The position numbers were made by a program, and so were the translations under genes. This document shows, in pieces, positions 30,181 to 59,127 of a DNA stretch of 64,000 bases. The notes beneath the pieces are model-generated. The model had not been told where the DNA came from. It saw only the letters and a list, made by a program, of their open reading frames with translations, and ran no database searches. The first letter of the stretch is position 1; each line of letters starts with the position of its first letter. Origin of the DNA: a virus; IMG/VR virus record IMGVR_UViG_3300022413_000352, positions 2,903-66,902 of that record; one strand, 5' to 3'.

Positions 30181-30182
30181 GA

Positions 30183-33978: not shown

Positions 33979-33980
33979 CA

Positions 33981-36370: not shown

Positions 36371-36373
36371 GGC

Positions 36374-39950: not shown

Positions 39951-39952
39951 CT

Positions 39953-42969: not shown

Positions 42970-43427
42970 TACGGTATCTGATTCTCATTCTAGGCGTACT
43001 CGCTTTAATGCCAGCTTGTGCCAAGTACAATACTCATCTTGGGCGGGTGAATCACGACAACAGCCCATTCACGTCGTCACAACAGGGCGCTGCAAGCGTG
43101 TCGTACGGCGGTGCGCCTATCAATATCGTGCCCCAATTGGTTTTGCCCATTACTCGTACTGTTTGGATCAAAGGGCATCGACGCCCGAATGGCGATTACG
43201 TAGGTGATTACCCCCTGACAATCGTATTTACACAGGGGCAATTTGAGCACGTACAGAAACAGAACCCAGTCATTCCGCAATCTATTTCACTAGCTGATGG
43301 TTACCACGAACCAGGCAAGGCAATAACGGATCGCCTACCGACTATGACGTTACCTACAGGTGCCCAGTTACAGGGTGTCATTGAAGCCACCAAATCGCGA
43401 TTAGGGGCTGCCAATGATACCAAGTAA
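42966..43427 (+). CDS. TraV-like lipoprotein
   Basis: LMPAC lipobox; TVWIKGHRRPNGDYV resembles the TraV RVWI..GD motif. Confidence 0.65.
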   Translation: MIRYLILILGVLALMPACAKYNTHLGRVNHDNSPFTSSQQGAASVSYGGAPINIVPQLVLPITRTVWIKGHRRPNGDYVGDYPLTIVFTQGQFEHVQKQNPVIPQSISLADGYHEPGKAITDRLPTMTLPTGAQLQGVIEATKSRLGAANDTK

Positions 43428-45840
43428 TATGTTGCTACCCTATGGCACGATGCTGGACGACAAAGGTATTGTGTTGCTTCACAGACCTGCTAAGTTTGGA
43501 CCGCTTAGCCGATTTGCCTTAGGTTGTGTGTTTGAGGTAACGCCCCTGGATATCGATCTACTTTCAGAAAGCGAAGTGGAACGAGCAGCGGCAGACGTCA
43601 AAGCGCTTATCTTAAACTTGAAGCCGTCGGCAATCCTAGACGTACGGTTGGATATGCGCCCCATTACGAACGTTCCGGCATGGGACAAGGCTCACGAAAC
43701 GCAGCATGATCCCGATACACAGCTTGTGCGTGAGCACATTGCCAATGGGATGCCCCACACGCCAGGCGCTAGCCCGATGCGGCTTACTGAGTGTAAAGTG
43801 ACGATTGGCTACCGCTACCCTCTTAAAGGCAATACCCGGCAGATACGCCAAATCTTAGACGTCCTAGCTCAGATTAAACCGTGGGGTAATGCGGCAGCGG
43901 CAACGGTATTGAAAGAGCGCCTAGAAGCCGAGTTTAACGAACAGCTTGTGGCGTTTGAATCCACAGTTACCGGTATCGAGAGATCCTTGCGCCTATTGGA
44001 TCTTACCCCGGTTCGACTGGATGGTACTGGGCTTATCAGTGCACTCAACCGGGCGGCGGGGCCAGATGCGACAGCGCCCACTGTGTACGACCCGGATATG
44101 AGTATTGGTGAGCAAATACATGTACCGTACGATCTGGGTGATACAACTATAAAAACGGTCAATCATACCGCTACCGTCTACACGTTAGAGCGCAGTGCAG
44201 CCGATGCGTTTGCTGGCATTCTGGGCGCATGTCGCACGCCTGAGGTAAATGTACACGGGTTGCCACTCGGTGAATTGGGTACACCGCTCTCCATTGCAGT
44301 GACAATCATGGTTAAGGATCAAGCCAGGAAGCGTACCACGTTATCGCTCAAGCACAGTCTAGCAAACTTGCTCAAGGTGGGTGGGCTGGGTGAAGAACGG
44401 AAAGACGCTGAACAGCAAGTAGACGCTCTCGGTGAACTCATTGCAGCCATGGCAGACGGTAGTGAGCAAGTACACGACGCGATGGTAAGTGCAGTGCTGT
44501 GGACCCGAAATGGTGAGACCCTCACTGATAGTCTATTTCAGAAAATGTCGTTGGACATGGCGATACACTGGTATAAAGAGCCGTTTATCGCCAGCACGTT
44601 ATTCTTACGTGGTTTACCGATTGGGTGTGATCCCGGCTTTCCAAATGAAAACTTCGTGCGTCGCTCACGTCAGATTGCGACTCGTACACTTGCCCGCTTA
44701 GTGCCGCTGTGGGGCGCATTCCAGGGAAGCCGAACCCCAACCGCGCTTTATGTGAACCGTCGCGGCGAGCCTGTGTTCTTTGATTTGTTCGATCGCACGG
44801 GTACCCCTCATATGACGATTGTGGGCAAGTCCCGGCGGGGAAAGTCAGCTTTTCTCAATACCTATATTAATCAGATTAGCCCGGACGACTACCTCGTCTA
44901 TATTCTTGATCGATATGGCTCATACGACGAAATGGCACGCCGTCGAAAGGGTAAGCTGGTTAAGTTTAACGCCACAACTCCAATTTGTATTGGTCCTATG
45001 GAAGGCGCTTTAGACGCACGCCACTGTCAGCATATGGCAATGATTATTGAAGAAATGGCAATGGCAGGCTTTCAGGATCAACACGTAAGCCCGGACGAAC
45101 GAACGCTGATTGGTAATTACATTCAAGACTGGGCGCTCAAGGGGCCGACAGCTCAAACCATGTCTGACTTTGTGGCGTACTTAGGCAGCAATGGTGATAC
45201 ATTTGCCAGACAGCTACAACTACTACTAGGTCCGTATATCAAGGATGGACGGTATGCCCCGTTTATCGACGGACCCAATCAATTGGGCATTGCCGACAGC
45301 TCGTTTTGGGTAGCGGATATCGCCGGATTAGAGGACTTTCCCGAACTACAGTCGATCATTATCGCATCTCTATTTACCTCACTTGAGCGGCATATCACAA
45401 ACTCGGATCTAATGAATATCCGTAAAATTCTCGCAGCCGATGAGGTGTCTTTCCTGATACGCAACCCACAGGCGGCAGAGTTCTTGCGCAAGTTGGCTGT
45501 TGCTCTGGCGCGGTTTTTTGCGTCGTTTGTCCTGATCTCACAATCGATGAGTGATTTTTTAACCGATCTGGGATCAGCCGCTGTAAAGATGAGTGATACC
45601 CATATCTTTTTTAACCTTGGACGACAAGAGCTTCATGAAATATCCGAAGTTTTTAAGCTGTCGGAGCACACGGCTGACTCAATTGTAAGCCTGCGTAAAT
45701 ATGAGGATTGTTCAGAGTGTGTCATCCGCTTTGAAGAAGGTGAAGGCGGTGCGGGAATCATTCGCGTGGTACCGCCACCCGAGTTTATCCAAGCCATAGG
45801 GCAATCTGAAGCCCATAGAGCGGCCAGAGGAGTTGTCTGA
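43414..45840 (+). CDS. traC: VirB4/TraC conjugative ATPase
   Basis: NRRGEPVFFDLF; Walker A GKSRRGKS; ILDRYGSY; Walker B ILAADE; ISQSMSDF. Confidence 0.9.
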   Translation: MIPSNMLLPYGTMLDDKGIVLLHRPAKFGPLSRFALGCVFEVTPLDIDLLSESEVERAAADVKALILNLKPSAILDVRLDMRPITNVPAWDKAHETQHDPDTQLVREHIANGMPHTPGASPMRLTECKVTIGYRYPLKGNTRQIRQILDVLAQIKPWGNAAAATVLKERLEAEFNEQLVAFESTVTGIERSLRLLDLTPVRLDGTGLISALNRAAGPDATAPTVYDPDMSIGEQIHVPYDLGDTTIKTVNHTATVYTLERSAADAFAGILGACRTPEVNVHGLPLGELGTPLSIAVTIMVKDQARKRTTLSLKHSLANLLKVGGLGEERKDAEQQVDALGELIAAMADGSEQVHDAMVSAVLWTRNGETLTDSLFQKMSLDMAIHWYKEPFIASTLFLRGLPIGCDPGFPNENFVRRSRQIATRTLARLVPLWGAFQGSRTPTALYVNRRGEPVFFDLFDRTGTPHMTIVGKSRRGKSAFLNTYINQISPDDYLVYILDRYGSYDEMARRRKGKLVKFNATTPICIGPMEGALDARHCQHMAMIIEEMAMAGFQDQHVSPDERTLIGNYIQDWALKGPTAQTMSDFVAYLGSNGDTFARQLQLLLGPYIKDGRYAPFIDGPNQLGIADSSFWVADIAGLEDFPELQSIIIASLFTSLERHITNSDLMNIRKILAADEVSFLIRNPQAAEFLRKLAVALARFFASFVLISQSMSDFLTDLGSAAVKMSDTHIFFNLGRQELHEISEVFKLSEHTADSIVSLRKYEDCSECVIRFEEGEGGAGIIRVVPPPEFIQAIGQSEAHRAARGVV

Positions 45841-47090
45841 TGCACCGCACTGTTATTGCGCTCATTCTGTTAGCTCTCAGCGCTCATGCCGTGGTTGCTC
45901 AAACCATATTCGAGGAAGGGCTTAACGCCAACCTATCAGGCATAAGCGTGACACACAATCCCAATTACTTCAGGGGATCGCTAAACTTCGACCCGATCCT
46001 ACCCCCAAACCGCACCACATTATTTCGCGGGCGGGCAGAGTCCGGTGATTTTTGTAACTTCGATTTAGTGGCGACGATGTTCCAAGAATTCGCTGAGCTG
46101 CCCGGTTTGCTGATTGAGCTGTTGCCGCTGATTATTGCGGGGATCGGCATCCACTTTCTATGCGCCACGTTCCCAGAGCAGTGCTCGTTGATGAAGGATA
46201 TTAAGAACTACGCCAATCTCGTTTTACGGTTTCAACGGGCTAGTTGTAATGAAGTAGTCGAGTCTGCGATGTATGGCGGAGTTGAGGCGAGTAACAGTGC
46301 CCTGGGCGAATGTTTCCGTGACGCCGCCCCAGGCGAATCAAGTCAAGCGGTATGGCGTCGCTGTCGTGAAGATCGCGGCGGCTTTATCCCACTACCAAAT
46401 GGCGGTAGAGGAACGGAAGTTGACGTGATTGCCATAATTCTAGAAACGGCTGGCGTTCCCCCTGAAGATGCAGCTCGAATCCAAGGGTATACGGGATCAT
46501 TTACGATCTTCTCCCAGGGTAACGTTTTCTCAACCGCGAAGACTGCCCCAACAGAGTCGGCAATCACTTACTATGCTGCTCGAAAAGAGGAATTTGCCGA
46601 GACGGTGGCTGAATTGGTGTCGGATGCCGTAGGTGGCAATCAACCGTCTGCTGAGCAACTCGCGGGGGTATCCGTTCCTGGTACGCCGTTACCTGTGGCA
46701 GCAATCGACTCTATAGCGGGTGAGCGCAACGCCACGATGCGAGCCTATAAATCTCAGGCATTAGCAGCACAACTGGCACTGGCTAGGTCCAAGTGGGACT
46801 TGACTGAGGACTTGCACAAGCTTGAGAAAGCGATACAGGCTTCTGAGATCACGCCGGATCAAGCCAAAGTAGCGCACTTGGCACTCGCCAACTTTAAGCA
46901 TGAGATTAACCGGTTAGAAGAGCTAAAAAAGATCGTCGATGAGCACTACCGCCCGGCTGTCGAAGGCTTGCTAGAAGCACGGGCGAATCAATTGCTAGAG
47001 GCGACGATCGCATCTGCACAGGTTCAGCCAACGCAGAATTCCGCCAGCCGTTATCCGGATGGTCAAACCTCATTCGGTTACTCACAATAG
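45840..47090 (+). CDS. Secreted conjugation protein (TraH-like / ICE periplasmic family)
   Basis: Signal peptide; CNFD..P..C..L..ASC Cys pattern; position between TraC and TraG-like. Confidence 0.5.
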   Translation: MHRTVIALILLALSAHAVVAQTIFEEGLNANLSGISVTHNPNYFRGSLNFDPILPPNRTTLFRGRAESGDFCNFDLVATMFQEFAELPGLLIELLPLIIAGIGIHFLCATFPEQCSLMKDIKNYANLVLRFQRASCNEVVESAMYGGVEASNSALGECFRDAAPGESSQAVWRRCREDRGGFIPLPNGGRGTEVDVIAIILETAGVPPEDAARIQGYTGSFTIFSQGNVFSTAKTAPTESAITYYAARKEEFAETVAELVSDAVGGNQPSAEQLAGVSVPGTPLPVAAIDSIAGERNATMRAYKSQALAAQLALARSKWDLTEDLHKLEKAIQASEITPDQAKVAHLALANFKHEINRLEELKKIVDEHYRPAVEGLLEARANQLLEATIASAQVQPTQNSASRYPDGQTSFGYSQ

Positions 47091-47099
47091 GTTAACACT

Positions 47100-47540
47100 A
47101 TGTTTATATTCCCGTTAACCCTATCAGAGGCAAGCGGCACCTTCGTTGGGCTGGAAGCCCAGGCACTGATTCGTTCAGCCCTTGGACCTGCACCGGCCCT
47201 AGTAATCTTATCGGGTGCGGCATTTATCGGGCTTGGAATGATACGGGGGCACCGTCGGCTAGTTGATCTTGCGTTTTATCTGTTCGCCAGTTTACTCACG
47301 CTCTCTTTGATATGGCCCGCATCGTCTTCCGTTTCCCCCTCAGATGTGCAATCACAAGCAGCGTCAGGGCAAGCCATTCAAGACGCATCGGGTTTGCTAC
47401 CAGGGCGAGCGGGGTTACAAATTCCAAGGGTAGAGGTGGAATTGCTGCGGGCCATATCGGGTATGTGGGTAAACGTTGCCAGAGCAATTAACAGCGACGG
47501 GGATCGCCCCTTCAGTGAAGTTGCCCGATCTCGTGGTTGA
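47100..47540 (+). CDS. TraG_N-like protein, N-terminal part (possibly frameshifted)
   Basis: Two TM helices; overlaps the next ORF in the -1 frame. Confidence 0.5.
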   Translation: MFIFPLTLSEASGTFVGLEAQALIRSALGPAPALVILSGAAFIGLGMIRGHRRLVDLAFYLFASLLTLSLIWPASSSVSPSDVQSQAASGQAIQDASGLLPGRAGLQIPRVEVELLRAISGMWVNVARAINSDGDRPFSEVARSRG

Positions 47541-48493
47541 TGCGTCAAGGCTTGTCTGGGGAGGCAACGGCACTTATTCGGGAATGGACATCAGCGTGCG
47601 TGATGCCAGCTCGCAAACGACTCTTAGACAGAGGCGGCGGTGCCAACTCAGAAGAGTTGCTGCCGTTCCCTGGTAGCGCCTTGCATGGCGTCATGGGCGA
47701 TATCACCGTGCAAATGGGCAATGACTTTATCCTGTGTGGTCCCCAATCGGATGTGATCATGACGGTGGCGAGAACTGAAGTCGAAGGATTCTTGTCACCC
47801 GGCGGAAACAGTATGAGCCAGATATGGTCATCAGAGCTTAGTATTGCCCCGGCTGAAGTGGTGAAGTTTCTCATCATGCGGGAGGTAAGAAGAGCCAGTG
47901 GGCCAGAAATACAACCCGTATCATTAACGGGGCTCTATGCGACCATGCGTGTCATCACATCGATGAGCGGCGGGATCAAGGATGCAGCGATCGGCACATT
48001 AAATTTACAAGGCGGCGATGTCTTAGCTGGATTAGGTAGCGCGTTGACAGGTGGGGTATCGAGTGCCGTATCTGATCTCGCGGTTTCAGTCCAGGCTCTA
48101 GTTGGAAAAGCACTATTTGTCACTAAGTTTAGCAGTGACATTGTGGGCGTTTTGCAGGCGGTGATCTTGGCTGTTTTCCCATTTGTGGCGCTAGTGGCTC
48201 TAACCCCCGGCAAGCATATCCTTACACTGGTTTCCTACGTTTATTTGCTTGTGGCGATTTACTCAATGCCGTTTGCATGGGCACTTGTAGATCTGCTCTC
48301 TGATATCGCGCTGTCGCAAGCTGGTAGCCTTACCCTTGTTACGAACCCAGTAGTAACCCTTGAAGCAATGGCATCCGCGTTAATCATTGTTACGATAGGG
48401 ACTTGGGTTGCCCTGTTCGGTTTAGCGTTTGCGATTCTACTGCCTATTGCTGGCGGGGCTTCTATGGTAATTCGTGGTGCAAGAGGAGTGTAA
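47537..48493 (+). CDS. TraG_N/VirB6-like polytopic protein, C-terminal part
   Basis: IREWTSACVMPAR; LQAVILAVFPFV..WALVD; several TM helices. Confidence 0.65.
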   Translation: MMRQGLSGEATALIREWTSACVMPARKRLLDRGGGANSEELLPFPGSALHGVMGDITVQMGNDFILCGPQSDVIMTVARTEVEGFLSPGGNSMSQIWSSELSIAPAEVVKFLIMREVRRASGPEIQPVSLTGLYATMRVITSMSGGIKDAAIGTLNLQGGDVLAGLGSALTGGVSSAVSDLAVSVQALVGKALFVTKFSSDIVGVLQAVILAVFPFVALVALTPGKHILTLVSYVYLLVAIYSMPFAWALVDLLSDIALSQAGSLTLVTNPVVTLEAMASALIIVTIGTWVALFGLAFAILLPIAGGASMVIRGARGV

Positions 48494-48495
48494 AA

Positions 48496-48891
48496 ATGTT
48501 GGAACAAAAAACATTCTACGATAAGAATCACACGGCATGGTTGAACCGCCCCGGACCCGCTAGAGGATTCCCATTATGGTGGTTATTTATCTATGCGTTC
48601 ATTCCCGGACAAGTGATCCGCCTGCTACTCAGTCAACCGTTCTGGGTTGGATTGGCGATTTCATCTGTTGTAGCGCTCGCCCTGCTGGTGGTTTGCGCGT
48701 ATGTCAGTTTCGCGTGGCGTGTCAACCAAACGTGCCCCGAATGCCAAACTACGAAAACGAGAGGATATACACGATGTTCAGGTTGTGGTTACCCGTCTTC
48801 ATGGTCGTCGGATTCGTCACAGCCGCAGACGCGCAAGAGTCCTGTGTATTCGCTGGACACGCGATCCCGTGCACGGTTGAAACGAGTGTAA
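48496..48891 (+). CDS. Membrane protein with zinc ribbon
   Basis: GAGGAG RBS; two TM segments; CPEC..CSGC. Confidence 0.55.
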   Translation: MLEQKTFYDKNHTAWLNRPGPARGFPLWWLFIYAFIPGQVIRLLLSQPFWVGLAISSVVALALLVVCAYVSFAWRVNQTCPECQTTKTRGYTRCSGCGYPSSWSSDSSQPQTRKSPVYSLDTRSRARLKRV

Positions 48892-49262
48892 CCACAGGCG
48901 AATCGATTACCCTTGAGCCGATCACTAAAACGGATTGGCAATTCCTTGAGCGTGATATGGCTCGCGACGCCACAGCCTTACACGCTGAACTTTTGAACAA
49001 CACAACGTTAGAGAATGCCAAACGCTATGCGCTATCTGAGATTTACCGACAATACAGGGGCATGCAAGCCATGAAGCTAGCCACCTACGTCCGGGCTCAG
49101 ATCATGGCGCAAATGCGGGCTAAGTACGGCGATCTCGATGAGCTTGGGTTGATTGAAGCGGCAGTAATTGAGTCCGGAATGCCCGTTATCAGTGTCCCCG
49201 ATTTGGTAAAGACGCTGAAGCCTGGTGATCTCATGCGCGCAGGAGTGCCCAATGGTCAGTAG
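48774..49262 (+). CDS. TraF N-terminal-like secreted protein
   Basis: GAGGA RBS; signal peptide; LLNNTTLENAKRY resembles TraF NPT.ENV..Y. Confidence 0.45.
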   Translation: MFRLWLPVFMVVGFVTAADAQESCVFAGHAIPCTVETSVTTGESITLEPITKTDWQFLERDMARDATALHAELLNNTTLENAKRYALSEIYRQYRGMQAMKLATYVRAQIMAQMRAKYGDLDELGLIEAAVIESGMPVISVPDLVKTLKPGDLMRAGVPNGQ

Positions 49263-49692
49263 CTATGTGATAGCCGCGCTCTTAGCTAGCACGTGTCCAA
49301 CCGTACCGCATGAACTTGTCCACGCCATTGTAGCAGTTGAATCCTCAGGCGATCCCTACGTGCTGAATGTTGGCGTTGGGAGTACCTGGAAAGCGTATCG
49401 CTTCGATGACATTGACGATGCAAAGGTGTTTTTACAGGCGGCGTTGCAAGTTACTCAAAACGTCGATATCGGGTTGATGCAAGTGAATTGGAAGTGGTGG
49501 GGTAAACATATTGGAGTTACGGCTAGCGAGTTACTCGACGTACCCACGAACCTGCGGGTGGGGTGCGATATCCTCAGTCGGGAATTAGCGGGTAAGGGTC
49601 CATTGTGGCAAAGGATTGGGCGTTACCATAGCCGTACGCCATGGCGGAATGAACAGTATGCGTTAAAGGTGATTCATGAGACGATCCGCTAG
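49252..49692 (+). CDS. Lytic transglycosylase (VirB1-like SLT)
   Basis: AIVAVESSG; DIGLMQVN; NLRVGCDIL; IGRYHS. Confidence 0.9.
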   Translation: MVSSYVIAALLASTCPTVPHELVHAIVAVESSGDPYVLNVGVGSTWKAYRFDDIDDAKVFLQAALQVTQNVDIGLMQVNWKWWGKHIGVTASELLDVPTNLRVGCDILSRELAGKGPLWQRIGRYHSRTPWRNEQYALKVIHETIR

Positions 49693-50656
49693 TCTGTTAA
49701 CCCTGATACTGTGCCTATCCAGTAACGCATATGCTCAGTTGGACTTCACCACGCTGATTAATCCCGCGTGTGCTGACTTCAAAGTGTTGGGCAGTTGCTC
49801 TTGTACCAATGTCCTACAGTTTGACCAGGTTTGCACCCGTGTGTCTTACCATCAGCCAAAACTACTTATTGAGACGGTTCCAATCCCCGGTGATACCTAT
49901 TTAGGCGGCATCCTTTCGCCCGCATTGCTTGTCGGACTTGTGACAGCTGGCGAAGCTCTGGCGTTTGCCGGTGGATCGGGTGCTGCACCGCTTGACTCTG
50001 GGCACAACCAACTGAGCTTTAGAGAAGCCCATGTATTCACAATCCCGCCAATCTTCCCGTATGGGTGTAACGCTTGTGATGAACAAGGTGAGCCAGAGCC
50101 GACTACCGTCACCTTAAACTACGCATCCGAATTGGACTTTCCAAACTGGCGTTATTTACCTGACGGAATCGCTCAACCACTGCCAATCGCTGGCTTATCT
50201 CTCGCCGGTGTTTGGGGTAGTTTGTACCCACGGACGGGTAAATCAGCCCACGATAGTCCCCCGGTTGCTGCTGCATTAATGGCATGGCGAGCTGCAACAA
50301 TCGCCTACAACCCAGCGCCAGGACCAGGAGGTATTGTACCTCATACAGTCCTCCAACCCGCTATTGGCATTCCCCCTGTCTGCTTTCAGTGCGCTAAGCC
50401 AACGCTTTCCAAGTGTGGATTGGTAGGAATGAACCCGTTGCACTGGCAGCTTGAGAAAGTTGAACCACGGGGGCGCAACGTTTTCATTCTATGGGAAAGG
50501 CGCATTTGCTGTGTCGATCCATCCACGGCAGCATGCGGGCTTGCAGGGCTTGCGGTAACTGGTGGGGGTGCTGATAATTTTTGTGACATTCCATATGACC
50601 CCGTATTCGGTATTGTCCCCGGTATGCCCATAGATATCCCATTCGATGGGCACTAA
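49676..50656 (+). CDS. traU: TraU-like protein
   Basis: Signal peptide; Cys-rich; VSYHQP..IETV; YASELD..WR; WGSLYPRTG; ILWER..CC. Confidence 0.75.
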   Translation: MRRSASLLTLILCLSSNAYAQLDFTTLINPACADFKVLGSCSCTNVLQFDQVCTRVSYHQPKLLIETVPIPGDTYLGGILSPALLVGLVTAGEALAFAGGSGAAPLDSGHNQLSFREAHVFTIPPIFPYGCNACDEQGEPEPTTVTLNYASELDFPNWRYLPDGIAQPLPIAGLSLAGVWGSLYPRTGKSAHDSPPVAAALMAWRAATIAYNPAPGPGGIVPHTVLQPAIGIPPVCFQCAKPTLSKCGLVGMNPLHWQLEKVEPRGRNVFILWERRICCVDPSTAACGLAGLAVTGGGADNFCDIPYDPVFGIVPGMPIDIPFDGH

Positions 50657-50999
50657 TGTGAACCCAATACAAGCCATATTCACAGAGAAATACAGCCACC
50701 TAGTAGCTCTCTCAGGCGCACGACTCACGCTGCTTATCCCTTACCTGTGGTTCTTGTTACTTGTGGTTATCGTCGGTGGATACGAGGGCAATGACTGGCG
50801 CAGACAACGACTTTATGCGGGCTACTACCGCTTGATCTTAGCCACTGCCACCATACTCTTTGTGGGTATGCTAGTCGCACTCGGAGCATGGTTAATTATG
50901 CCCAGTCTGATGCAGCCACACATAACAGCCATTGGCTTAGCTGTAATCGGGTTTGCACTCGGTTGGACAGCAATGGCTGGGCGTCCGGTAATGAGGTAA
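50646..50999 (+). CDS. Conjugation-associated membrane protein (DUF4400-like)
   Basis: Three TM segments; GGYEG..RR; directly upstream of traD. Confidence 0.45.
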   Translation: MGTNVNPIQAIFTEKYSHLVALSGARLTLLIPYLWFLLLVVIVGGYEGNDWRRQRLYAGYYRLILATATILFVGMLVALGAWLIMPSLMQPHITAIGLAVIGFALGWTAMAGRPVMR

Positions 51000-51001
51000 A
51001 A

Positions 51002-52789
51002 ATGTCCATTACAATCCCGTTTCCCAATCGTCAACTGTTAATCGAGTTTGGCTTTATCATTGCAGTGTGTGCGATCGCATTCATAGTTGTACTGCCGATG
51101 CTCGATGTCTTTCCTTACGGACATGCATTCTTCATTGCTTGGCTATTCTGGAGAGCACACTGGGTCGCTAAACAACTACTGATGCGCGGTAGCTGGATGA
51201 ACCCGCAATCAGCCAAACCGTTACCCGTTAAACCCAACCCAAATGGCATTGTACTCGGCGATGGTTTTACTTGGACAGGTGACCACGTGGACGCTATTCA
51301 GCGCTATGTGCATGTCGCCAAATCGCTACCACAAGATGATGGTAAGCGCGGTGGATCGCCTGCGATTCACGGCTGCGGTTCTCACCGCGATCGCTCAGTC
51401 ATTTTGCCCTATGAACGGCTGCGTAGTCACGTGGCTATTGAGGGCTCAACCCAGAGCGGAAAGACGGTGCTACTCGCCAACATGATTAGCCAAGCCATTG
51501 CGATTAACCAGGGTGCGGTAGTTATCATGGATCCAAAAGGTAGCGATCAGCTCTACTACACGGCAAAGGCAATGGCTGAACGCTGTGGGCGCAAGTTCGC
51601 GTTAATTCGCCCGCGAACACCCTTGCTTAGTTCTCGGTTTAACGTGTTATCGTCATGCGAGGAAGCTGTTGATATGCCGGGGCGGTTGCGCCCGATCTTC
51701 CCTGAAGGCCGTGAAGCGTATTTCAAGGAAGAACCGTTATCCATTTGGCTGAGAGTCGCTGCTATGCACAAGGCGCTGGGGATCACATGGGATATTCGCG
51801 ATATCCATAACGCCGTGATGGATTTAGACACGCTACGCTGGACACTGGCGCAGTATATGGCGCTCAAAGGCATTGGCTTTAGAGGATTACGCCGTACAGA
51901 TATGCCCGACGTTGATATGCTGAAAAATAAGTATGTCGAGATGGGAAAAGACGATCCGTTAATTCCCGGTATTCTGCGGCCGCTAACCCGTAAACAAGAA
52001 ACTCATCAAGAGCGCTGCGGCAACTTAGACGTCGCGCTTAGTGGTGTGGTGGACATCGAGCACGCTGAAATATTTGGAGCACAAGACGCACTCACTTGGC
52101 GGGACATTGACGAGGGCAACATGGTTGTAATCTTTCGCACCGATTCACTCGTCACCCAACAGATCGGGCGCAACATCGCGTCTCTGTTCTTCCAGGATTT
52201 CATGGGCTATATGGGGCTGCGGTACCTCACGAGCGGAACCAGTCGTATTCCAATTACAATGTTCGTTGATGAAGTTGGCGAGATCGTTTATCCCGACTTT
52301 CGGCAAGCAATCAATAAGGTGGGTGAGGCCGGTGGGCGTCTTATCCTCACATGGCAAACTAAATCCGATCTGGATGCCACGCTTGGGAAGTTCCAGGCGG
52401 ATGTGATCCGGGCGAATTGTCAATCGCGGATCACCATGCGGATTGCGGATGATGAGACCGCCGATATTCTATCGAGACAATCACCTAAAGTTCGAGTAAC
52501 TCGGCTTACAGGTAACCGATCCATGTTGATGGGATCAAACTCTGGTAAGGGTATATCTGTCGAGCACGAGGATGTGCCTCTACTCGAAGCAAACATTTTA
52601 CAAGGGCAACAGGTAGGGCAAGGATTCTTCAGATTAGATGGATCGCTATTCCATTTTAATATTCCATTTTCTGAAAGTGAGGTACCCAATGACTCAACGC
52701 CTACTAATAGTTTTAGTTACTCTATTTGTACTCAGTGCTTGCAGTGGCTCAGGTGGTTTGGACGATCAAGACTTTCCTCAAACTCGTGA
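51002..52789 (+). CDS. traD: Type IV coupling protein (TraD)
   Basis: N-terminal TMs; LGDGFTW..GSPAIHG; Walker A GSTQSGKT; IMDPKG; FVDEVGE..INKVGEAG..WQTKSDL. Confidence 0.88.
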   Translation: MSITIPFPNRQLLIEFGFIIAVCAIAFIVVLPMLDVFPYGHAFFIAWLFWRAHWVAKQLLMRGSWMNPQSAKPLPVKPNPNGIVLGDGFTWTGDHVDAIQRYVHVAKSLPQDDGKRGGSPAIHGCGSHRDRSVILPYERLRSHVAIEGSTQSGKTVLLANMISQAIAINQGAVVIMDPKGSDQLYYTAKAMAERCGRKFALIRPRTPLLSSRFNVLSSCEEAVDMPGRLRPIFPEGREAYFKEEPLSIWLRVAAMHKALGITWDIRDIHNAVMDLDTLRWTLAQYMALKGIGFRGLRRTDMPDVDMLKNKYVEMGKDDPLIPGILRPLTRKQETHQERCGNLDVALSGVVDIEHAEIFGAQDALTWRDIDEGNMVVIFRTDSLVTQQIGRNIASLFFQDFMGYMGLRYLTSGTSRIPITMFVDEVGEIVYPDFRQAINKVGEAGGRLILTWQTKSDLDATLGKFQADVIRANCQSRITMRIADDETADILSRQSPKVRVTRLTGNRSMLMGSNSGKGISVEHEDVPLLEANILQGQQVGQGFFRLDGSLFHFNIPFSESEVPNDSTPTNSFSYSICTQCLQWLRWFGRSRLSSNS

Positions 52790-53084
52790 GCAAGAGTTTG
52801 CTGAGGAAGCGCTGTTTCGTGCGCTGGATCGGGTTGAAGTAAGTTGCGAAGTTGTAAGCTGTCACGGTGATGGAATTCATACAGAAGTGGTTGATCTTGT
52901 TTTCAACAATATCAATGCGACGTGCCAGCAACGCTGCATGCGAGTCGAAGTCGCCGGAGAAGAGCCGCGACACTATTATGCATGGTTGGTGTGGCGGCGG
53001 ATTCCAAATACCTGCTACCACGCTGAAAAGTATGAGGTTCTGTTGATGAAAGAAGTACCTGTAATCTGTGTCGAAACACACTGA
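52689..53084 (+). CDS. Lipoprotein at the end of the tra operon (entry-exclusion candidate)
   Basis: GAGG RBS; LFVLSAC lipobox; TC..RC..RHY..WRR. Confidence 0.65.
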   Translation: MTQRLLIVLVTLFVLSACSGSGGLDDQDFPQTREQEFAEEALFRALDRVEVSCEVVSCHGDGIHTEVVDLVFNNINATCQQRCMRVEVAGEEPRHYYAWLVWRRIPNTCYHAEKYEVLLMKEVPVICVETH

Positions 53085-53092
53085 GATGGTAT

Positions 53093-53581
53093 TTATCTAT
53101 GATAATGATCATAATGCGGGGGATCAATATAGTCGGGTTCTTTTACTTTTGGGTTTGGGTACAGAGGATGGATTATAGTATCTTTAGTAGTTTTTTGATT
53201 AGCAGGCTTTACATTGATTTTTGGTAACTTATAATACGGATCGTATTCCTCAATACGAAAGGGTCTATTTATTATTCTCGGTTTATAAGTCTCAAGGTGG
53301 AACTCTTTCTGCTTAACTTGTATTTCAGTTACAGCTTTTAACACATCATATTGGAATTCATCCACTTTATCAGCCAACCGGTTGACTTGATGATTCAGCC
53401 TTGCGATAGCATTACGAAGTTCAACGATCTCATGCGTTCGCACTGCCCCAGCGTGTGGCTGTAAATTGTGATTTTGCAGTAGTATCCAAGTAGCGGTGAG
53501 GGGTAACCCTAAGATTGGAAGAAGCCAGCCGACAAGTGATTTCCAACTAACCGGGGAATTCCCGCCGCCGGTAGCAACCAT
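53093..53581 (-). CDS. Membrane-anchored coiled-coil protein
   Basis: N-terminal TM then heptads; GGAGG RBS; last gene of the head operon. Confidence 0.5.
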   Translation of the reverse strand: MVATGGGNSPVSWKSLVGWLLPILGLPLTATWILLQNHNLQPHAGAVRTHEIVELRNAIARLNHQVNRLADKVDEFQYDVLKAVTEIQVKQKEFHLETYKPRIINRPFRIEEYDPYYKLPKINVKPANQKTTKDTIIHPLYPNPKVKEPDYIDPPHYDHYHR

Positions 53582-53599
53582 ACGGCTACCTCCAACTGT

Positions 53600-53884
53600 T
53601 TAAGATGTATCTTGAACGCTGAAAACGACCCAACCCCCTTGTTCATAGAGGGGTACATCATGTTCGGGAATCAATACAAAGCCGCGCCCTTGCCCGACGC
53701 GCTCACGATATGCCGCGAGTGACTTGGTATCGGTGTAGCTGATTAGAGTTTTACTGTCCATGTCCCCATAGTAAGCGGGATCAGCACTTTCAGACTTTGG
53801 GCACCAAATAGACGCGATTTGCTCTTCTAGGCTGAGTTTCGCTGGCTCCATAAGACATATCTCCCGCTCGCGTTGTCCTTCCAC
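53600..53884 (-). CDS. Hypothetical protein
   Basis: Coupled ORF after the capsid gene. Confidence 0.45.
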   Translation of the reverse strand: MEGQREREICLMEPAKLSLEEQIASIWCPKSESADPAYYGDMDSKTLISYTDTKSLAAYRERVGQGRGFVLIPEHDVPLYEQGGWVVFSVQDTS

Positions 53885-54165
53885 TCTCGCGCAGTTATTT
53901 CGATCATGACGCGCCTACCCCGACGGTTTGAATCGTAGACCTCAACCCGTCCATTACGATTTAGAGGCACTTCAGGCTCGACAGACGCCTGATACGCCTC
54001 AACAATCGTTTCAGTTGGTGGCTCGACGTGAACCACCGGCTCTGAAGTATCCTTATCTTCCCACCGGGTATGTACCTTGGAATTAAAGTCGGTCAGATTA
54101 ATTGAAACCCGACCGACAGATGAATCCCAAGGGCATACCACAGCGATAGTTTCAAGCTGTGGCAT
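53827..54165 (-). CDS. Hypothetical capsid-associated protein
   Basis: Directly downstream of the major capsid gene; INLTDF..H pattern. Confidence 0.5.
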   Translation of the reverse strand: MPQLETIAVVCPWDSSVGRVSINLTDFNSKVHTRWEDKDTSEPVVHVEPPTETIVEAYQASVEPEVPLNRNGRVEVYDSNRRGRRVMIEITAREWKDNASGRYVLWSQRNSA

Positions 54166-54174
54166 TTAACTTCC

Positions 54175-55335
54175 TTAGCTAGTCGGATAAACCCTCACGG
54201 CCATTTTCTCGTTGAGGACTTTCACGCCGTAGAAAACATCGAGGACCATAACCTCACGACTGAGAGCGCCGTCCAGGTATCGCCACGCTCTTACCGACAT
54301 GCCTGACTGAGGATCTACAGCGGTAAAACTATTTGCCGCTACAGACGGTCCTGGAAGGTTAGCGAAAGCGATCGCCATACTATGTTCGTGGAACATGAGC
54401 GAGTTCAGACGACCGGCTGTATCCACGTAGTCCGTAAACGTAACAACCGGATCGCCAGTCGTAGCCACTGCCAGAGGTGGACTGAACGTAATAGTAAGGG
54501 AAGTGGTTGCAACGGTGGCGTCAGCCGTTAGCACGTAGCGCGTTGTATCACCTGCGATTGCGAAGTTGTCACCCTTTTTAAACGCTTGGGTATCCGTCAT
54601 GGCAGCCACAACCATAGTGGTCGCTCCTGCCGCCGTGTCCGGTGCTGTTCCAGCCACATCACCGCCACCGCTACCAGTCCCGGGGGTAAATGTCGGTACT
54701 TGTTGGCTACTGAAAACCTCAGTATTGAAACGAGTGCCCAGAGTACCACGCATCAACGGACCTGTTGCAGCCGCACCCGCGTTGTTCTGGCTTGACCAAA
54801 ACGGCGCTTTGAGCATGGAAGCTTCCATTTGGGAATCGATCATGTAATGGAAACGACCGGGCTCGTCGATATCCACCGCGTTATCGCGAAGGATTTTACG
54901 GGGCAGTAGAATCTCATCTTCATCGATATTCGCTGAGGCGTAACCGTGAACGTAGGGAATATCAAGATAGAGATCGCGTAGTGAGGTATCGATTGCCAAA
55001 CCCAACGCATAAGCCGCAGGAGCGATATGATCTTGAATCACTGACTCGCCCGTGATCGCTAATTCGTTATGAGGCACGGCAAACCGCACTTCTTTAAACT
55101 GATCGATTACAATATTGATCGAACTCGGCGTGAGATCAACCACGCTGCCAGGGGCGGATTGCGCTGTGAACGTTCCGGGCTTGCGAATCTGGATCGTATC
55201 GCCAAGATTGACCGCACGACGTTCGAGGTCATAACCACGATGCACACGCGCTGCCATGCCTAAAACATTACGTAAATGTCTTAGAGATTCCATGGCGTAG
55301 AATATAGGATTATAGGGCGAAATTGTATTTGCCAT
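54175..55335 (-). CDS. Major capsid protein (P22 coat-like)
   Basis: MAN..LRNVLGMA..V.R.Y..GDTIQIRKP; IAPAAYAL..ID; FHEHSMAIA; DVFYGVK. Confidence 0.88.
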   Translation of the reverse strand: MANTISPYNPIFYAMESLRHLRNVLGMAARVHRGYDLERRAVNLGDTIQIRKPGTFTAQSAPGSVVDLTPSSINIVIDQFKEVRFAVPHNELAITGESVIQDHIAPAAYALGLAIDTSLRDLYLDIPYVHGYASANIDEDEILLPRKILRDNAVDIDEPGRFHYMIDSQMEASMLKAPFWSSQNNAGAAATGPLMRGTLGTRFNTEVFSSQQVPTFTPGTGSGGGDVAGTAPDTAAGATTMVVAAMTDTQAFKKGDNFAIAGDTTRYVLTADATVATTSLTITFSPPLAVATTGDPVVTFTDYVDTAGRLNSLMFHEHSMAIAFANLPGPSVAANSFTAVDPQSGMSVRAWRYLDGALSREVMVLDVFYGVKVLNEKMAVRVYPTS

Positions 55336-55370
55336 GAGGGCACCTATGCGGTTTAGTGATTGAATATAAC

Positions 55371-55484
55371 CAGCTTACGGACACCGCGCTGATAGTGTCT
55401 GAAAATCGGCCTATCCACGGACACCGCGATAGGTGTGGACTGAACGGACGGTGGAACAACTGGGGTCACGGACACCGCAACCCC
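55371..55484 (-). promoter_or_regulatory. Three hairpins with invariant GCGGTGTCCGT core in the capsid mRNA leader
   Basis: ACGGACACCGC at 55377, 55417 and 55468, each closed by a different complementary stem. Confidence 0.7.
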
Positions 55485-55541
55485 AATCGTTGAAAATCCC
55501 ACCTTAACTATATTTTACTCAAACGTTGTAATTATATCAAC

Positions 55542-56393
55542 TTAGCCGTTTGGCATGGCGATATTCACTTCGCCAGACATGACCCGATCCCGGACTTGCT
55601 CGTAGTCTGCAAGATTGCCAACCTGCTCACCTGGAATCGTCCAGGTGCCAGATGAGTCAAGGTGACCATTCTGGACGCTGCCTGAACCAACCGATTCCTT
55701 CAGTGACCAGGGCGACGATGAAACAAAGTTGGCGACGTATTCCTCCATACTGATCCGCTCTTGGTCTTTGCCATATAAGGGCATCTCACCCTCGTATGCG
55801 TTTGGCTTCATATCGTCGCCCTCGATACGCCAGGGCTTAGCCAGAGAGCCAACCAGATGATCCACCAACTCATCACGCACATGTTGTTTGTGTAACTCGT
55901 TCGCCAGCCGCTCATTGATACTCAACTCGGCATGTTTACTCATAAGCGACTCATAGCGAGAGTCCTTCTGCTGACTTGCTTGGTTTGCGGCTTCAAGTCG
56001 GTGCTCAAGATCGGCGATCGCGTTCCGGTATTTCATCTCAGCGGCTTCGGCGTGTTTGCCTTCGGATAAAAGCCGCTCTTGCTCAAGCTGATCTTTCTGA
56101 GCCCGCAGAGCCTCAAGCTCGCCCATCGCTTCCCGTGCTTTATCGGGATCGATACCGTCAAACCCAGCCATCTTGTCTTGATACCCCTTCAGCTCACCCT
56201 GCATCTGATCAATACGCCGCTGCCGGGCGGCACGTTCCGCTTTTTCGTTACTCAATACGTTATTCAGTTTGTCGATGTCGGTATACTGATCACTGAGCCG
56301 GACTACCCCAGACGTACCGTTAACAAACTCATACATCTCACGAAAGGGCTCAGGGACTTGGTCAAGGCTATCGAATTGTTCTGGTAGTGCCAT
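55542..56393 (-). CDS. Capsid scaffolding protein
   Basis: SLDQVPEPFREMY; coiled coil; FDGIDPDKAR; GSGS; position before the capsid gene. Confidence 0.75.
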   Translation of the reverse strand: MALPEQFDSLDQVPEPFREMYEFVNGTSGVVRLSDQYTDIDKLNNVLSNEKAERAARQRRIDQMQGELKGYQDKMAGFDGIDPDKAREAMGELEALRAQKDQLEQERLLSEGKHAEAAEMKYRNAIADLEHRLEAANQASQQKDSRYESLMSKHAELSINERLANELHKQHVRDELVDHLVGSLAKPWRIEGDDMKPNAYEGEMPLYGKDQERISMEEYVANFVSSSPWSLKESVGSGSVQNGHLDSSGTWTIPGEQVGNLADYEQVRDRVMSGEVNIAMPNG

Positions 56394-56396
56394 ACT

Positions 56397-57596
56397 TTAC
56401 CTCAAATTAGATGCTGTGGTCTCGCCATATCGTTCAGTCAACTCGGTCACGCTAAGTTGCCGCCCTGTGGTAGACCGGATCAAGTCTCGTAACGTTAATT
56501 TACCATCACGCCATAAATTGTACGTACCCGTTCCAAGGATTTCACGTTGTTCGGTTGCGGTTTGCCTCCTTAAAAATGCGTCAAATGTGGTATTGTCGGG
56601 AATCTTCCCATCTAACGCTTGCCGCTGTGACTGATTCAATTCTTTAACTCGCGCCTTGGTATAAGCCCGATCGCTCTTTTCAATATCGCTTACACGTCGA
56701 AGCTCGGGCGTGTAAAAGTTCCGTTCACCCACATGGTAGGGCATCCCACCTAGATAGGCATGGCTTTGACGCCCATCGAGACGCCGCAACGGCTCAAGGC
56801 TCGGTATCCGGTAGCGGTTGCCGTGCCGAGCAATACTAATCGCTACCGTTCGAGTATCAAATGTGGCGACGTCCCGGATGGATCGGATAAAATCATCGTT
56901 ATTTTTATACATCGTGATCCGGGCTTGGTTGTGCACAGCGCTCTGCCAAGTCCGGTAAAACGCTTGCGACTGAGCCGAAGTGACACTTGCCACACTACGC
57001 GGTCCCAACCGTCCAGCAGTAGACCCTCTCAACCCAACGAGTAAATCGTTTAAAGTCGGACCTTCCGTCAATGATCCCAGCCACGCACTACGCAACCGTC
57101 GGGTGAAATTATCCCGGATATTCTCTAACCATACCGTAGCTTCGCCTCGGAACACATTGGGCGTACCTGGTCCTGCCGGGCTGGGAAACACCGTTGTATC
57201 GATAGTCTGCTCAATTTGGGCGGGGGTAATGGTGTTACGCATGAGGGGCGCGCCTGTGGCACGATTGATGAGATCGGCGTGTAGATTTAACTCAGATGCA
57301 ACGGTGTCCCCTAATGTCTCTTTAAGGGCGTCATATAGACTATCTTTACCCAACAAAGCGGTATCAACTAGCGGTAGAATTTCGTCCATCAGACGATCCA
57401 ACCGAGCCCGCTGCGCTGCCAGACGCACCACGTTTGTTGGATCGCGACTTGTGCGCCGAGTCAACGTCTCGATGGCATCTATCAGATGCAGTAATCGCCT
57501 ATTGATCAGTCTGCGCTGATTCGCTGCGAGTCTCTCGATCCGTATCTGCTGATTCATCGTCGCGTTCAGTATTTTGTCGTTCGCCGATTCCGCCAT
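56397..57596 (-). CDS. Minor head protein (SPP1 gp7 / Mu gpF-like)
   Basis: ATFDTRT; P.H..ER; GKIPDNTTFDAFLRRQ..ILG..L.R.G.L; follows the portal. Confidence 0.75.
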   Translation of the reverse strand: MAESANDKILNATMNQQIRIERLAANQRRLINRRLLHLIDAIETLTRRTSRDPTNVVRLAAQRARLDRLMDEILPLVDTALLGKDSLYDALKETLGDTVASELNLHADLINRATGAPLMRNTITPAQIEQTIDTTVFPSPAGPGTPNVFRGEATVWLENIRDNFTRRLRSAWLGSLTEGPTLNDLLVGLRGSTAGRLGPRSVASVTSAQSQAFYRTWQSAVHNQARITMYKNNDDFIRSIRDVATFDTRTVAISIARHGNRYRIPSLEPLRRLDGRQSHAYLGGMPYHVGERNFYTPELRRVSDIEKSDRAYTKARVKELNQSQRQALDGKIPDNTTFDAFLRRQTATEQREILGTGTYNLWRDGKLTLRDLIRSTTGRQLSVTELTERYGETTASNLR

Positions 57597-59124
57597 TTGT
57601 GAACTCGTTGGTTAAAAGTTCATCCGCTTCAAGTTCCCGCCTAGCTTGCCAGGTTTCAAAGTCCCCGATATGTTCCGGTGCCAGCATCTCACCCTGTGAC
57701 AACTGATGATGGACGTCTTGTGCCGTCATCGTGCCGCTTTGTAAACTAGTGACTAGCGACATCAGCATCTGTGGGGTGAGTCCAACCGGTAGAAAGTCGG
57801 TATTGATCTGGACGGATACCCGCTCATCATCCGGGTCTTCTGTCAATCCCATCCAGTAACAATGCTTACGTAGCGCTTTCGTGACGCCCATCGACACCAT
57901 GTTGACACGGCTTTGTAGGATCGACTGTTCACCCATGTGACGCCATGCCACCGTCTCAGCAGCTTCGACACCACGTGCCGCTTGCTGATTCGATAGTAAC
58001 CGCGATCCCAGTACAGCCATCTCAGCTTTGACTGCTTCAAGTTGCTCACGTAAGGCGTCAGACTGTGCGCCACCGGGTTCAACTAGAATGACTTGGGTGT
58101 TTTCACGGGTGGCGATATTCTGGACAGCCGTACCACCCAACCGAATCGGGTCAGTTCCCAAATCGGGTCCAACCACAAATAGCGTCTTGAGCATTGTCCA
58201 GTGCAGGGACCATTTCAACGCGGCTGACGTTTGATAGTATGAGATACACTTTTCAGCCAGTGCCAATAAGTCCGGTTTAGGCGGGGTAACGTCCAAATCA
58301 TTCGCGTTGATCATGACAAATGGAATAAAGGACAGCGGCGCTTCAAAACGAGTCGGAACAACCCGGGATTCTAGGACAAATTCCTCTGCACCGTTCTCGC
58401 TTTGATTCTTTGTCCAGGTTACAACCGCATATCTTGGGGCTGTCACCGATTGATTACCCACATTTACGACCGGCATCTCTGTAATGACTAACTCTTGCCA
58501 GATGGTACTGACTTCCTTTTCGTAGGGGTCATCCTTCTTAGGCATGATCCGCTCTTCTTCCAAGATCACGCGAGTGAGGATCGGAAGTCCCAACCGGTCG
58601 GTACGATCCCAATTAATGATAGATTCAGCCGGTACGCTTTTCCAATGTGGTCGGCGCTGATCAGCTGGCGTTCGACTATCCGGTTGATCCACCATGATAC
58701 CGACGCGGGAAGTCGTGAGCATCTGTTTCATAACTTCGGCGCAAAACGCATCGAGAGGCAATCCAGTGTTAGTAATATCTGACAAGTGAGGATCAACCCG
58801 TGCCCGCCACTCTTCCGGCATTTCGATCTCTACCGGCTTACGAAAAATCAACCCTAGAAAGCCCTCAACCGTCCGTTCAGCCGCGCCAAACCAGTCGGCA
58901 AAGTCGAGATACGTGTCATAGTCGTTTTCTGCTATGTTACTGTAAACAGATGGCGTAGAGTCGGTATACTGAAGAGTACCCGCGTAATAGTCCGGCATAC
59001 CTGACGGCGCACGCAAATAGGTGGTGCGCTTCTCTTTGATTGCAGTTTGACCATTGACGCTATCGCGGCATTTTATCCACTGTTGGTAGCGTTTGGTGTA
59101 GTCAGGATGCCGACTGTTTTGCAT
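57499..59124 (-). CDS. Portal protein (DUF4055-type)
   Basis: HPDY..W..RD..G..IK..YL; GLIFRKP; IINW; IPFV; LAE..YYQTSA; INTDF. Confidence 0.85.
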   Translation of the reverse strand: MQNSRHPDYTKRYQQWIKCRDSVNGQTAIKEKRTTYLRAPSGMPDYYAGTLQYTDSTPSVYSNIAENDYDTYLDFADWFGAAERTVEGFLGLIFRKPVEIEMPEEWRARVDPHLSDITNTGLPLDAFCAEVMKQMLTTSRVGIMVDQPDSRTPADQRRPHWKSVPAESIINWDRTDRLGLPILTRVILEEERIMPKKDDPYEKEVSTIWQELVITEMPVVNVGNQSVTAPRYAVVTWTKNQSENGAEEFVLESRVVPTRFEAPLSFIPFVMINANDLDVTPPKPDLLALAEKCISYYQTSAALKWSLHWTMLKTLFVVGPDLGTDPIRLGGTAVQNIATRENTQVILVEPGGAQSDALREQLEAVKAEMAVLGSRLLSNQQAARGVEAAETVAWRHMGEQSILQSRVNMVSMGVTKALRKHCYWMGLTEDPDDERVSVQINTDFLPVGLTPQMLMSLVTSLQSGTMTAQDVHHQLSQGEMLAPEHIGDFETWQARRELEADELLTNEFTNGGIGERQNTERDDESADTDRETRSESAQTDQ

Positions 59125-59127
59125 GTT

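Follow-up and report, generated by a model that had tools for sequence, protein, structure and literature searches.

Type IV secretion systems (T4SSs) in which a type IV coupling protein (T4CP) works without a relaxase are well known from effector translocation; the VirB/VirD4 and Dot/Icm types belong to mating-pair formation (MPF) classes MPF_T or MPF_I, are chromosomal and have known effectors. Hybrids of phages and conjugative elements form a second described kind. According to the available text of one report, conjugative phage-plasmids, for example p1002-1 of E. coli, arose recently when a known conjugative plasmid fused with a known phage-plasmid (10.1101/2025.03.14.643293), and the term is also used in the accessible part of another (10.64898/2025.12.20.690322). 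P1-like phage-plasmid lineages gained origins of transfer (oriTs) or relaxases after phage-gene loss, according to the available portions of two further papers (PMC10879196, PMC12282955), and in Streptococcus a prophage can be joined to a T4SS element in tandems of a phage and an integrative and conjugative element (ICE), from which, as the accessible text has it, phage DNA can travel by conjugation (Sci Adv 2026, PMC13651849). The element analysed here combines these known kinds, being a phage-conjugative hybrid with a relaxase-less T4SS. It is represented by one metagenomic tailed-phage contig of ~67 kb from sediment, without close relatives. The stretch under analysis, called the window, comprises 64,000 nucleotides and corresponds to bases 2903–66902 of the 66,902-base virus record IMGVR_UViG_3300022413_000352; positions below are those of the window unless stated otherwise. 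The gene in question encodes the coupling protein TraD (51002–52789).

The resemblance to p1002-1-type hybrids lies in the presence of phage-particle genes and a conjugation apparatus on one replicon. The present element differs from those fusions, as they are described, in that its T4SS forms a single block within a 67-kb phage genome that is otherwise unrelated; it lacks a relaxase and any recognisable genes for plasmid replication or partition, and phage and plasmid collections contain no close relative. The phage-ICE tandems, in the published part at hand, consist of two integrative elements with their own integrases and the MOB_P1 relaxase of the ICE, whereas here one closed genome has neither. 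Unlike the VirB/VirD4 and Dot/Icm effector systems, the T4SS described here is F/SXT-like and phage-borne, and no effector candidate was found. A search of the literature by phrase turned up no account of a relaxase-less F-like T4SS in a tailed phage; what it returned was limited to conjugative phage-plasmids of the fusion type, "conjugative prophages" of streptococci and phage-ICE tandems, and supplementary tables such as those of Pfeifer et al. 2021 may hold cases. That study, by its available text, screened phages with CONJscan (PMC7969092).

With respect to the transfer machinery, the likeness is to elements of the SXT/R391 and IncA/C type (MPF_F, MOB_H), since the best NCBIfam matches are SXT_TraD and F-type TraC, and TraB, TraU, VirB1-like and TraG_N-like proteins are all present. 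The operon order is of the pilin-L-E-K-B-V-C type. In contrast to those elements, the SXT_TraD and TraC-F-type scores lie under their curated cut-offs, TraD stands at the operon end, the carrier is a phage, and both a MOB_H TraI (TraI_2, 0 matches) and any match to TraN, TraH, TraF or TraW are missing.

An intact coupling ATPase, together with a channel and pilus gene set, lies inside a closed phage genome, and this genome lacks genes for any described family of relaxase, for an integrase and for ParB. The gene that carries the first half of this finding is the following.

51002–52789, plus strand: TraD/VirD4-type coupling ATPase, with T4CP Pfam domains above cut-off, Walker motifs and 10 metagenomic homologues at 60–70% identity.

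An earlier note, made from the DNA letters alone, had described an intact TraD with Walker A and B motifs here, and the prediction of an intact VirD4/TraD-type coupling protein is confirmed. Three Pfam domains score above their cut-offs, namely TraG-D_C (3.2e-14, 53.4 bits against 22), TrwB_AAD_bind (1.3e-12, 47.8 bits against 20.5) and T4SS-DNA_transf (1.3e-10, 41.2 bits against 20.1). The Walker A residues G148, G153, K154 and T155 and the Walker B residues D423 and E424 are invariant in all nine aligned TraD sequences. The best NCBIfam match, SXT_TraD (TIGR03743; 1.3e-54), reaches 185.8 bits, well under the cut-off of 366, so the protein is to be read as a divergent relative and not as a member of that family. 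The open frame spans 50888–52789, with a first ATG at 50888; the start at 51002 is backed by the nine-sequence alignment and by the 10 homologues, which cover 65–90% of the longer frame. Two hydrophobic stretches were seen by eye in the translation within the first ~90 residues, and a sequence-only comparison of the alignment profile with PDB sequences gave 0 matches at E ≤ 0.001.

The search for a relaxase carries the second half. The earlier note had seen none among the open reading frames (ORFs) of the window, and this observation is not only right but stronger than first stated. ORF scans with Pfam, NCBIfam and PHROGs gave no relaxase. A six-frame search of the whole 66,902-base contig with seven relaxase-type Pfam families, TraI_2 (MOB_H), TrwC (MOB_F), Relaxase (MOB_P/Q), MobA_MobL (MOB_Q), Mob_Pre (MOB_V), Rep_trans (MOB_T) and Replic_Relax, gave 0 matches at E ≤ 10, and the same procedure, used as a positive control, recovered the TraG-D_C domain of TraD at 5.9e-17. 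A crude scan for the H-hydrophobic-H motif picked out only three window ORFs of at least 150 residues; two of these are tail proteins and the third is an unassigned 162-residue membrane protein beside the head genes with the motif at its extreme C-terminus (residues 159–161), which leaves no non-virion candidate in this size class.

A relaxase just outside the window, which would have changed the picture, was also looked for. As the note had stated, both window ends lie in virion or fibre genes, and the remaining 2,902 bases of the record hold only fibre-like genes, including a 571-residue Tectonin/Rax2-domain protein and small ORFs. The two ends of the record belong together. Its first 200 bases are a 63-nt tandem repeat of the same unit as the last 350 bases of the window; a minus-strand ORF running from contig base 316 leaves the contig start within a 21-residue repeat, and the ORF that enters at the contig end has the identical 21-residue repeat in the same frame. 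Since both ends lie in the same repeat, in one frame and in one fibre gene, the contig closes on itself. The simplest reading is that a single fibre gene crosses the junction of a genome that is probably circular or circularly permuted, with the assembly broken in the repeat array (63477–64000 of the window plus contig bases 1–200). Given this closure and the fibre-like content of the extra 2.9 kb, there is no space for a relaxase outside the window.

TraD lies near the 3' end of a 14-kb operon on the plus strand (39123–53084), all genes of which are co-oriented and which encodes F/SXT-like mating-pair formation. Identities below are to L003, a 27.9-kb metagenome contig that is the nearest relative of the block and was compared over 19.5 kb, starting inside TraK. 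The other operon genes are:

39123–39419, plus strand: XRE-family helix-turn-helix (HTH) regulator at the operon head (Pfam HTH_3, 1.7e-14).
39513–39950, plus strand: pilin-like small hydrophobic protein in the TraA/VirB2 position, with a signal-like N-terminus and Gly/Ala-rich hydrophobic segments; named from operon position, no family match above cut-off.
39953–40273, plus strand: membrane protein in the TraL/VirB3 position, placed by gene order only; no family match.
40426–41109, plus strand: protein in the TraE position with one N-terminal membrane segment, placed by gene order only; no family match.
41106–41846, plus strand: secreted protein in the TraK position, with a signal peptide in the translation; 48% identity to the first L003 ORF, no family match.
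41830–42969, plus strand: TraB/VirB10-like protein (TrbI 4.1e-08; F-type TraB 5.5e-10); 64% identity.
42966–43427, plus strand: lipoprotein in the TraV position, with a lipobox-like N-terminus; 46% identity, no family match.
43414–45840, plus strand: TraC/VirB4 ATPase (TraC-F-type 3.4e-54; P-loop_TraG 9e-17); 74% identity.
45840–47090, plus strand: secreted T4SS-operon protein of 416 residues with a signal peptide; 66% identity, no Pfam, NCBIfam or PHROG match.
47100–48493, plus strand: TraG_N/VirB6-like polytopic membrane protein in two frames, broken at 47524–47526 (weak Pfam TraG_N, 0.0033).
48576–49262, plus strand: secreted T4SS-operon protein with an internal signal-like segment; 59% identity, no family match.
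49225–49692, plus strand: lytic transglycosylase, VirB1-like (Pfam SLT 6.2e-07; NCBIfam VirB1 2.2e-09).
49676–50656, plus strand: TraU-like protein (Pfam TraU 7.4e-16, above cut-off; NCBIfam TIGR03756 ICE protein 1.7e-07).
50646–50999, plus strand: membrane protein of 117 residues directly upstream of TraD, with hydrophobic segments; 42% identity, no family match.
52638–53084, plus strand: lipoprotein-like ORF after TraD, with a lipobox-like N-terminus, the last gene of the block shared with L003 (40% identity over 137 residues).

The MPF_F core (VirB4/TraC, TraB, TraU and a TraG_N-type protein) is contained in one operon, with only TraU above its curated cut-off: TraB reaches 33.7 bits against Pfam TrbI, slightly below the cut-off of 35, and TraC 184 bits against NCBIfam TraC-F-type, where the cut-off is 567. 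No operon ORF matches the TraN, TraH, TraF, TraW or TrbC families in Pfam or NCBIfam. The sole family match of the ORF at 52638–53084 (cytochrome c551, E 0.0043, 17 against 118 bits) is far below cut-off and not credible. Judged by eye, every protein 3' of the XRE gene except TraC and TraD has a signal peptide or membrane segments, which leaves no space in the operon for a hidden cytoplasmic relaxase. A 10-nt inverted repeat (39064–39073 and 39116–39125) brackets a promoter-like site that is not above chance, and promoter and terminator scans at both operon ends were not above shuffles.

The origin of this block can be approached through L003. The L003 block is syntenic with the window from TraK, where the homology begins at the start of the compared stretch, to the ORF following TraD, where it ends, with 40–74% amino acid identity that extends to the small ORFs around TraD. 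Beyond the T4SS block, the window and the compared L003 stretch have nothing in common, either coding or non-coding, and no non-coding DNA is conserved between L003 and the contig. After its block (12030–19532) L003 encodes an integrase of the Phage_int_SAM_2/Integrase_1 type, Ros/MucR, OmpA, a single-stranded DNA-binding protein and a PIF1/RecD-type helicase, with a weak GemA-like ORF at the contig end; no phage genes were found in the compared 19.5 kb and no relaxase in the 7.4 kb that follow its T4SS block. The setting in L003 appears ICE- or plasmid-like. The two loci differ in that L003 has an integrase and no phage genes in the compared part, a GC content of 0.61 against 0.51, and a TraG_N-like gene in a single frame.

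Other relatives are few. None of 46 IMG/VR loci related by large terminase (24–47% identity), searched with all window ORFs, carries T4SS genes, and the T4SS block itself gave no megablast match in collections of phages and of plasmids. TraC has 725 matches among plasmid records, all below 60% identity, with the 25 best listed at 21–25%. In tblastn against phages, TraD and TraC each found two distant records at no more than 33% identity over part of the query, those of TraC being unannotated. No relatives of TraD or TraC were found in IMG/VR. In a collection with one genome per GTDB species TraD has none and TraC a single distant partial match (27% over 190 residues) in a metagenome-assembled Clostridium genome. 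For the phage itself, the coat protein has no relatives in IMG/VR and the primase-helicase one distant locus at 29%.

Taken together, the homology with the L003 block and the absence of T4SS genes from all 46 terminase-related loci argue for a block acquired from a conjugative-element lineage, and capture of machine and coupling protein as one block (about 39.1–53.1 kb) without a relaxase is the most likely history on sequence grounds. The composition of the block (GC 0.51, third-codon-position GC (GC3) about 0.5) is like that of the head and tail genes, with which its tetranucleotide correlation is r = 0.69–0.75; this would fit either a long residence or a donor from the same host. The homologous block of L003 has a GC of 0.61 and a GC3 of 0.69–0.77, and so different a GC suggests that L003 probably comes from a different host. 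Confidence in the history is limited because it is drawn from one metagenomic contig without close relatives.

The operon is largely intact. Full frames are kept in 13 of the 14 operon genes 3' of the XRE gene (39513–53084, 13.6 kb), and all 12 that can be compared with L003 align along their length. Contigs from two sediment runs, belonging to two studies, are at least 99% identical to the window over T4SS, early and head parts (aligned on 36000–55999), with only two single-base differences in 20 kb; these run contigs are short, at a depth of 1–4x, and no piece bridges the module junctions. The broken gene, TraG_N/VirB6-like, owes its two frames to a C-run at 47524–47526 that is three long in the window and four in L003. 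One contig of run X1, one of the two sediment runs, starts eight letters before 47524 and shows four C, so that the frameshift is best explained as an assembly or sequencing error or a polymorphism. The earlier note had counted neutral decay of the tra operon as a possible objection: with 13 of 14 frames full and a lone frameshift that amounts to a C-run length, decay is not supported, and it keeps a minor standing. As a separate observation, the difference in the C-run may also reflect phase variation.

The reading that we favour, at a probability of roughly 40%, is that TraD is an orphaned substrate receptor whose relaxosome, if it moves DNA at all, is supplied in trans. According to this proposal, an F/SXT-like pilus and channel operon would have been taken up as one block into the ~67-kb phage genome from an ICE or plasmid lineage known only from metagenomes and represented by L003, and it would have arrived without that lineage's relaxase and oriT module. 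In the carrier state the operon would be expressed from its own XRE-controlled promoter, apart from the lytic genes, as suggested by the presence of its own XRE regulator and by its convergent orientation to the late head genes. Once expressed, it would build a working pilus and channel, and TraD would feed DNA only when a relaxosome comes from elsewhere. An ICE, plasmid or mobilisable element that shares the cell and belongs to the same T4SS lineage could be the helper, and its relaxosome would act either on the helper's own oriT or on a site in the phage DNA that resembles an oriT.

Several points weigh against this proposal. The main weakness is that a helper with a relaxase would, as a rule, come with a T4SS and a coupling protein too, so the phage copy would be redundant. 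A T4CP and its relaxase generally form a cognate pair. A partner that acts in trans is not known, and L003, as the nearest relative, has a very different GC and so probably a different host. Several small early ORFs without a family match leave room for a new nickase in cis. The TraG_N/VirB6-like gene, a single 466-residue ORF in L003, lies in two frames in the window; the record itself is typed as linear in IMG/VR and as 79% complete by CheckV; and the single contig limits what can be concluded about selection since capture. Among the sequencing runs listed, no RNA datasets carry the element.

The strongest competitor, unlikely though still to be reckoned with, is that the MPF and T4CP block is stranded cargo, recently gained by illegitimate recombination, cut off from its relaxase and heading to decay. 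The missing relaxase and the absence of a recognisable oriT agree with it, as do the one frameshift in the VirB6/TraG_N-like gene of the assembled contig and the occurrence of the T4SS in none of the 46 related phage loci, which shows that it is not a conserved trait of the lineage; the similar composition could, in turn, just mean a donor in the same host. However, 13 of the 14 genes have kept full frames over 13.6 kb together with their catalytic motifs, the lone frameshift is a homopolymer length difference for which run X1 has the four-C version, and a phage with limited capsid space would be expected to drop a useless 14 kb (21% of the genome) fast.

Slightly less probable is a use of the machine that does not involve DNA: lysogenic conversion, either through the pilus, as in adhesion, biofilm formation or cell contact, or through T4CP-dependent protein delivery, for none of which a relaxase is necessary. 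In effector-translocating T4SSs a coupling protein without a relaxase is the rule, and the operon, which includes an XRE regulator of its own, shares its orientation with neither the early nor the late phage genes. Nevertheless, no effector candidate was found, TraD would be superfluous in a role limited to the pilus, although its ATPase motifs are kept, and F/SXT-like MPF systems are, to our knowledge, known for DNA transfer and not for protein delivery. The lipoprotein gene after TraD, furthermore, sits where exclusion-type genes are often found in conjugative systems, which may rather suggest conjugation.

It is improbable, though conceivable, that the genome encodes in cis a hitherto undescribed type of relaxase, as an unassigned early protein or a phage replication or packaging protein that nicks phage DNA and docks on TraD, in which case the element would be a self-transmissible conjugative phage. 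Slightly harder still to credit is the fuller scenario in which a carrier-state phage would build its own pilus and TraD would pump the phage genome to neighbouring cells after processing by a phage enzyme outside the described relaxase families, which would give the phage a second way to spread, dependent on cell contact. Unassigned early ORFs do exist, and those to be considered are the orphan 32374–33144, 30739–31146, 33439–33978 and the HNH endonuclease 35840–36370; new relaxase families are still being found, and a T4SS so far from known systems (VirB4 at 21–25% in the 25 best listed of 725 matches) could be served by an equally divergent relaxase. The early region also holds a 34-bp palindrome (33161–33194) and an 8-nt repeat (34377–34405). 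Against this stand the lack of any homologue for the only sizeable unassigned cytoplasmic ORF (256 residues), where TraD has 10, the lack of an H-hydrophobic-H motif in non-virion ORFs of at least 150 residues, and the lack of a counterpart in the compared L003 stretch for any window ORF outside the T4SS block; in addition, 31149–32369 is DUF3102-like and 33439–33978 looks like an HPD-motif and HTH protein.

Finally, it is very improbable that the locus is an assembly chimera in which a phage was joined to a conjugative element that resembles it in composition, for although it is a single metagenomic contig typed as linear and 79% complete, with run coverage of about 1–4x in short contigs and no junction-bridging piece, a chimera needs two false joins (about 36.6–39.1 kb and 53.09 kb) in a contig that closes in frame on itself, the block composition matches the phage and so argues against a mixture of organisms of different GC, two runs, each from a different study, both contain T4SS, early and head parts at 99% identity or more, and the orphan early protein is also on record in a 66,836-base contig of about equal size.

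Mobile elements are sorted by whether they travel in particles or by conjugation, and a closed phage genome with a conjugation machine blurs this split. An active machine could give the phage access to cells without its surface receptor or, alternatively, could drive the transfer of other elements present in the same cell. The absence of a relaxase offers a test case for whether coupling proteins can work with unrelated or undescribed DNA-processing enzymes, and for how conjugation modules part from their relaxases. Relaxase typing underlies the detection of plasmids and ICEs, and virus classifiers call the contig a plain virus, so that hybrids of this sort may be missed; a self-transmissible conjugative phage, if that is what it is, would be invisible to relaxase-based (MOB) typing. 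Even as stranded cargo, the block would document a rarely seen instance of genes passing from conjugative elements to phages.

Two early proteins had been named in the earlier note as possible unrecognised DNA-processing proteins, and both fare poorly.

31149–32369, plus strand: DUF3102-like DNA-binding N-terminal domain followed by a long coiled coil (Atlas feature score 0.95, 210 shared features).
32374–33144, plus strand: orphan ORF of 256 residues that matches only itself.

For the first, all 10 best named Atlas matches belong to the DUF3102 family, which occurs in phages and plasmids; it has no match in Pfam, NCBIfam or PHROGs and no H-hydrophobic-H motif, and it was rejected as a relaxase, being a DNA-binding and coiled-coil protein and not a nuclease. 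The second matched only itself both in 5.8 billion clusters (word-indexed search) and in 1.84 billion representatives (full HMMER). A single-sequence AlphaFold2 model had a mean predicted local distance difference test score (pLDDT) of 35.6 and was unusable, and the figures supplied with Atlas put its weak leads at 0.76–0.81, among them replication-initiator-like ones, no higher than chance. It has no HUH motif, and its GC3 is 0.37 against about 0.5 elsewhere in the genome. A cognate relaxase should have relatives wherever TraD has them, and TraD has its 10 at 60–70% identity, so this ORF is a poor candidate for that role.

Some further features of the early region were noted. Directly 3' of the orphan ORF, the palindrome at 33161–33194 is perfect, with 17-nt arms and no spacer, and it could serve as a binding site for a protein or as an origin-like element. 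The 8-nt unit at 34377–34405 is repeated 3.6 times between the ORF 33972–34361 and an HTH_17 gene, and is followed by a terminator-like hairpin at 34448–34477. The product of 33439–33978 (plus strand) has an HPD tripeptide in a context that looks J-domain-like by eye, and then a weak HTH match.

The carrier is a tailed, siphovirus-like phage, as indicated by Terminase_2, Terminase_6N, a DUF4055 portal, a P22-type coat, TMP_3, a GpJ FNIII domain and Peptidase_M15_4. Its principal modules outside the T4SS operon include the following.

53093–61139, minus strand: module for the phage head and DNA packaging, in convergent orientation to the T4SS operon and assigned by family matches.
61796–64000, minus strand: fibre-like DUF2341/LamG gene, with 21-residue (63-nt) repeats that span the contig junction, the contig start giving the N-terminus of the repeat protein in the same frame.
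28201–30210, minus strand: primase-helicase with a Zn finger, a Toprim region and AAA_25 (AAA_25 2.1e-24; PHROG 2.9e-30; NCBIfam PRK07078 5.4e-24).

Within the head module the matches are to a P22-type coat (3e-17), the DUF4055 portal (4.9e-21), the large terminase (1.2e-4), the small terminase (5.7e-19) and a head morphogenesis protein (PHROG 3.1e-40). The tail genes encode a tape measure, a GpJ-like tail-tip protein and large beta-helix/PASTA and LamG fibre proteins, and further phage genes encode an M15 peptidase (endolysin), a VRR-NUC nuclease, RecT, the HNH endonuclease and a DnaQ-type exonuclease. Searches of the whole contig gave 0 matches for tyrosine or serine recombinases (with a TcpM-like option included), 0 for ParB_N, 0 Rfam families and 0 tRNAs; the lack of an integrase fits an extrachromosomal state without proving one.

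Around the operon and in the remaining phage modules a number of smaller observations were made. The only minus-strand gene between the early genes and the T4SS operon, 37277–39061, encodes a secreted protein of 594 residues with an N-terminal fibronectin type III domain and adjoins ~650 nt of non-coding DNA (36626–37276); its product is possibly a depolymerase or a cargo gene marking the left edge of the captured block. Two fibre-like genes, both with DUF2341 and Laminin_G_3, form a paralogous pair, one in the tail module (13175–14752, minus strand) and one by the terminase genes (61796–64000, minus strand). At 629–5443 (minus strand) a tail-spike-like protein of 1604 residues combines a right-handed beta-helix with F5/8 type C and three PASTA domains, the latter being odd for a phage whose T4SS genes suggest that its host has an outer membrane. 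Three minus-strand ORFs with signal peptides separate the replication genes from the lysis genes (22754–24439, 24567–24992 and 25000–25392), one of them a beta-helix protein of 561 residues, and three secreted proteins are an unusual number for that region of a phage.

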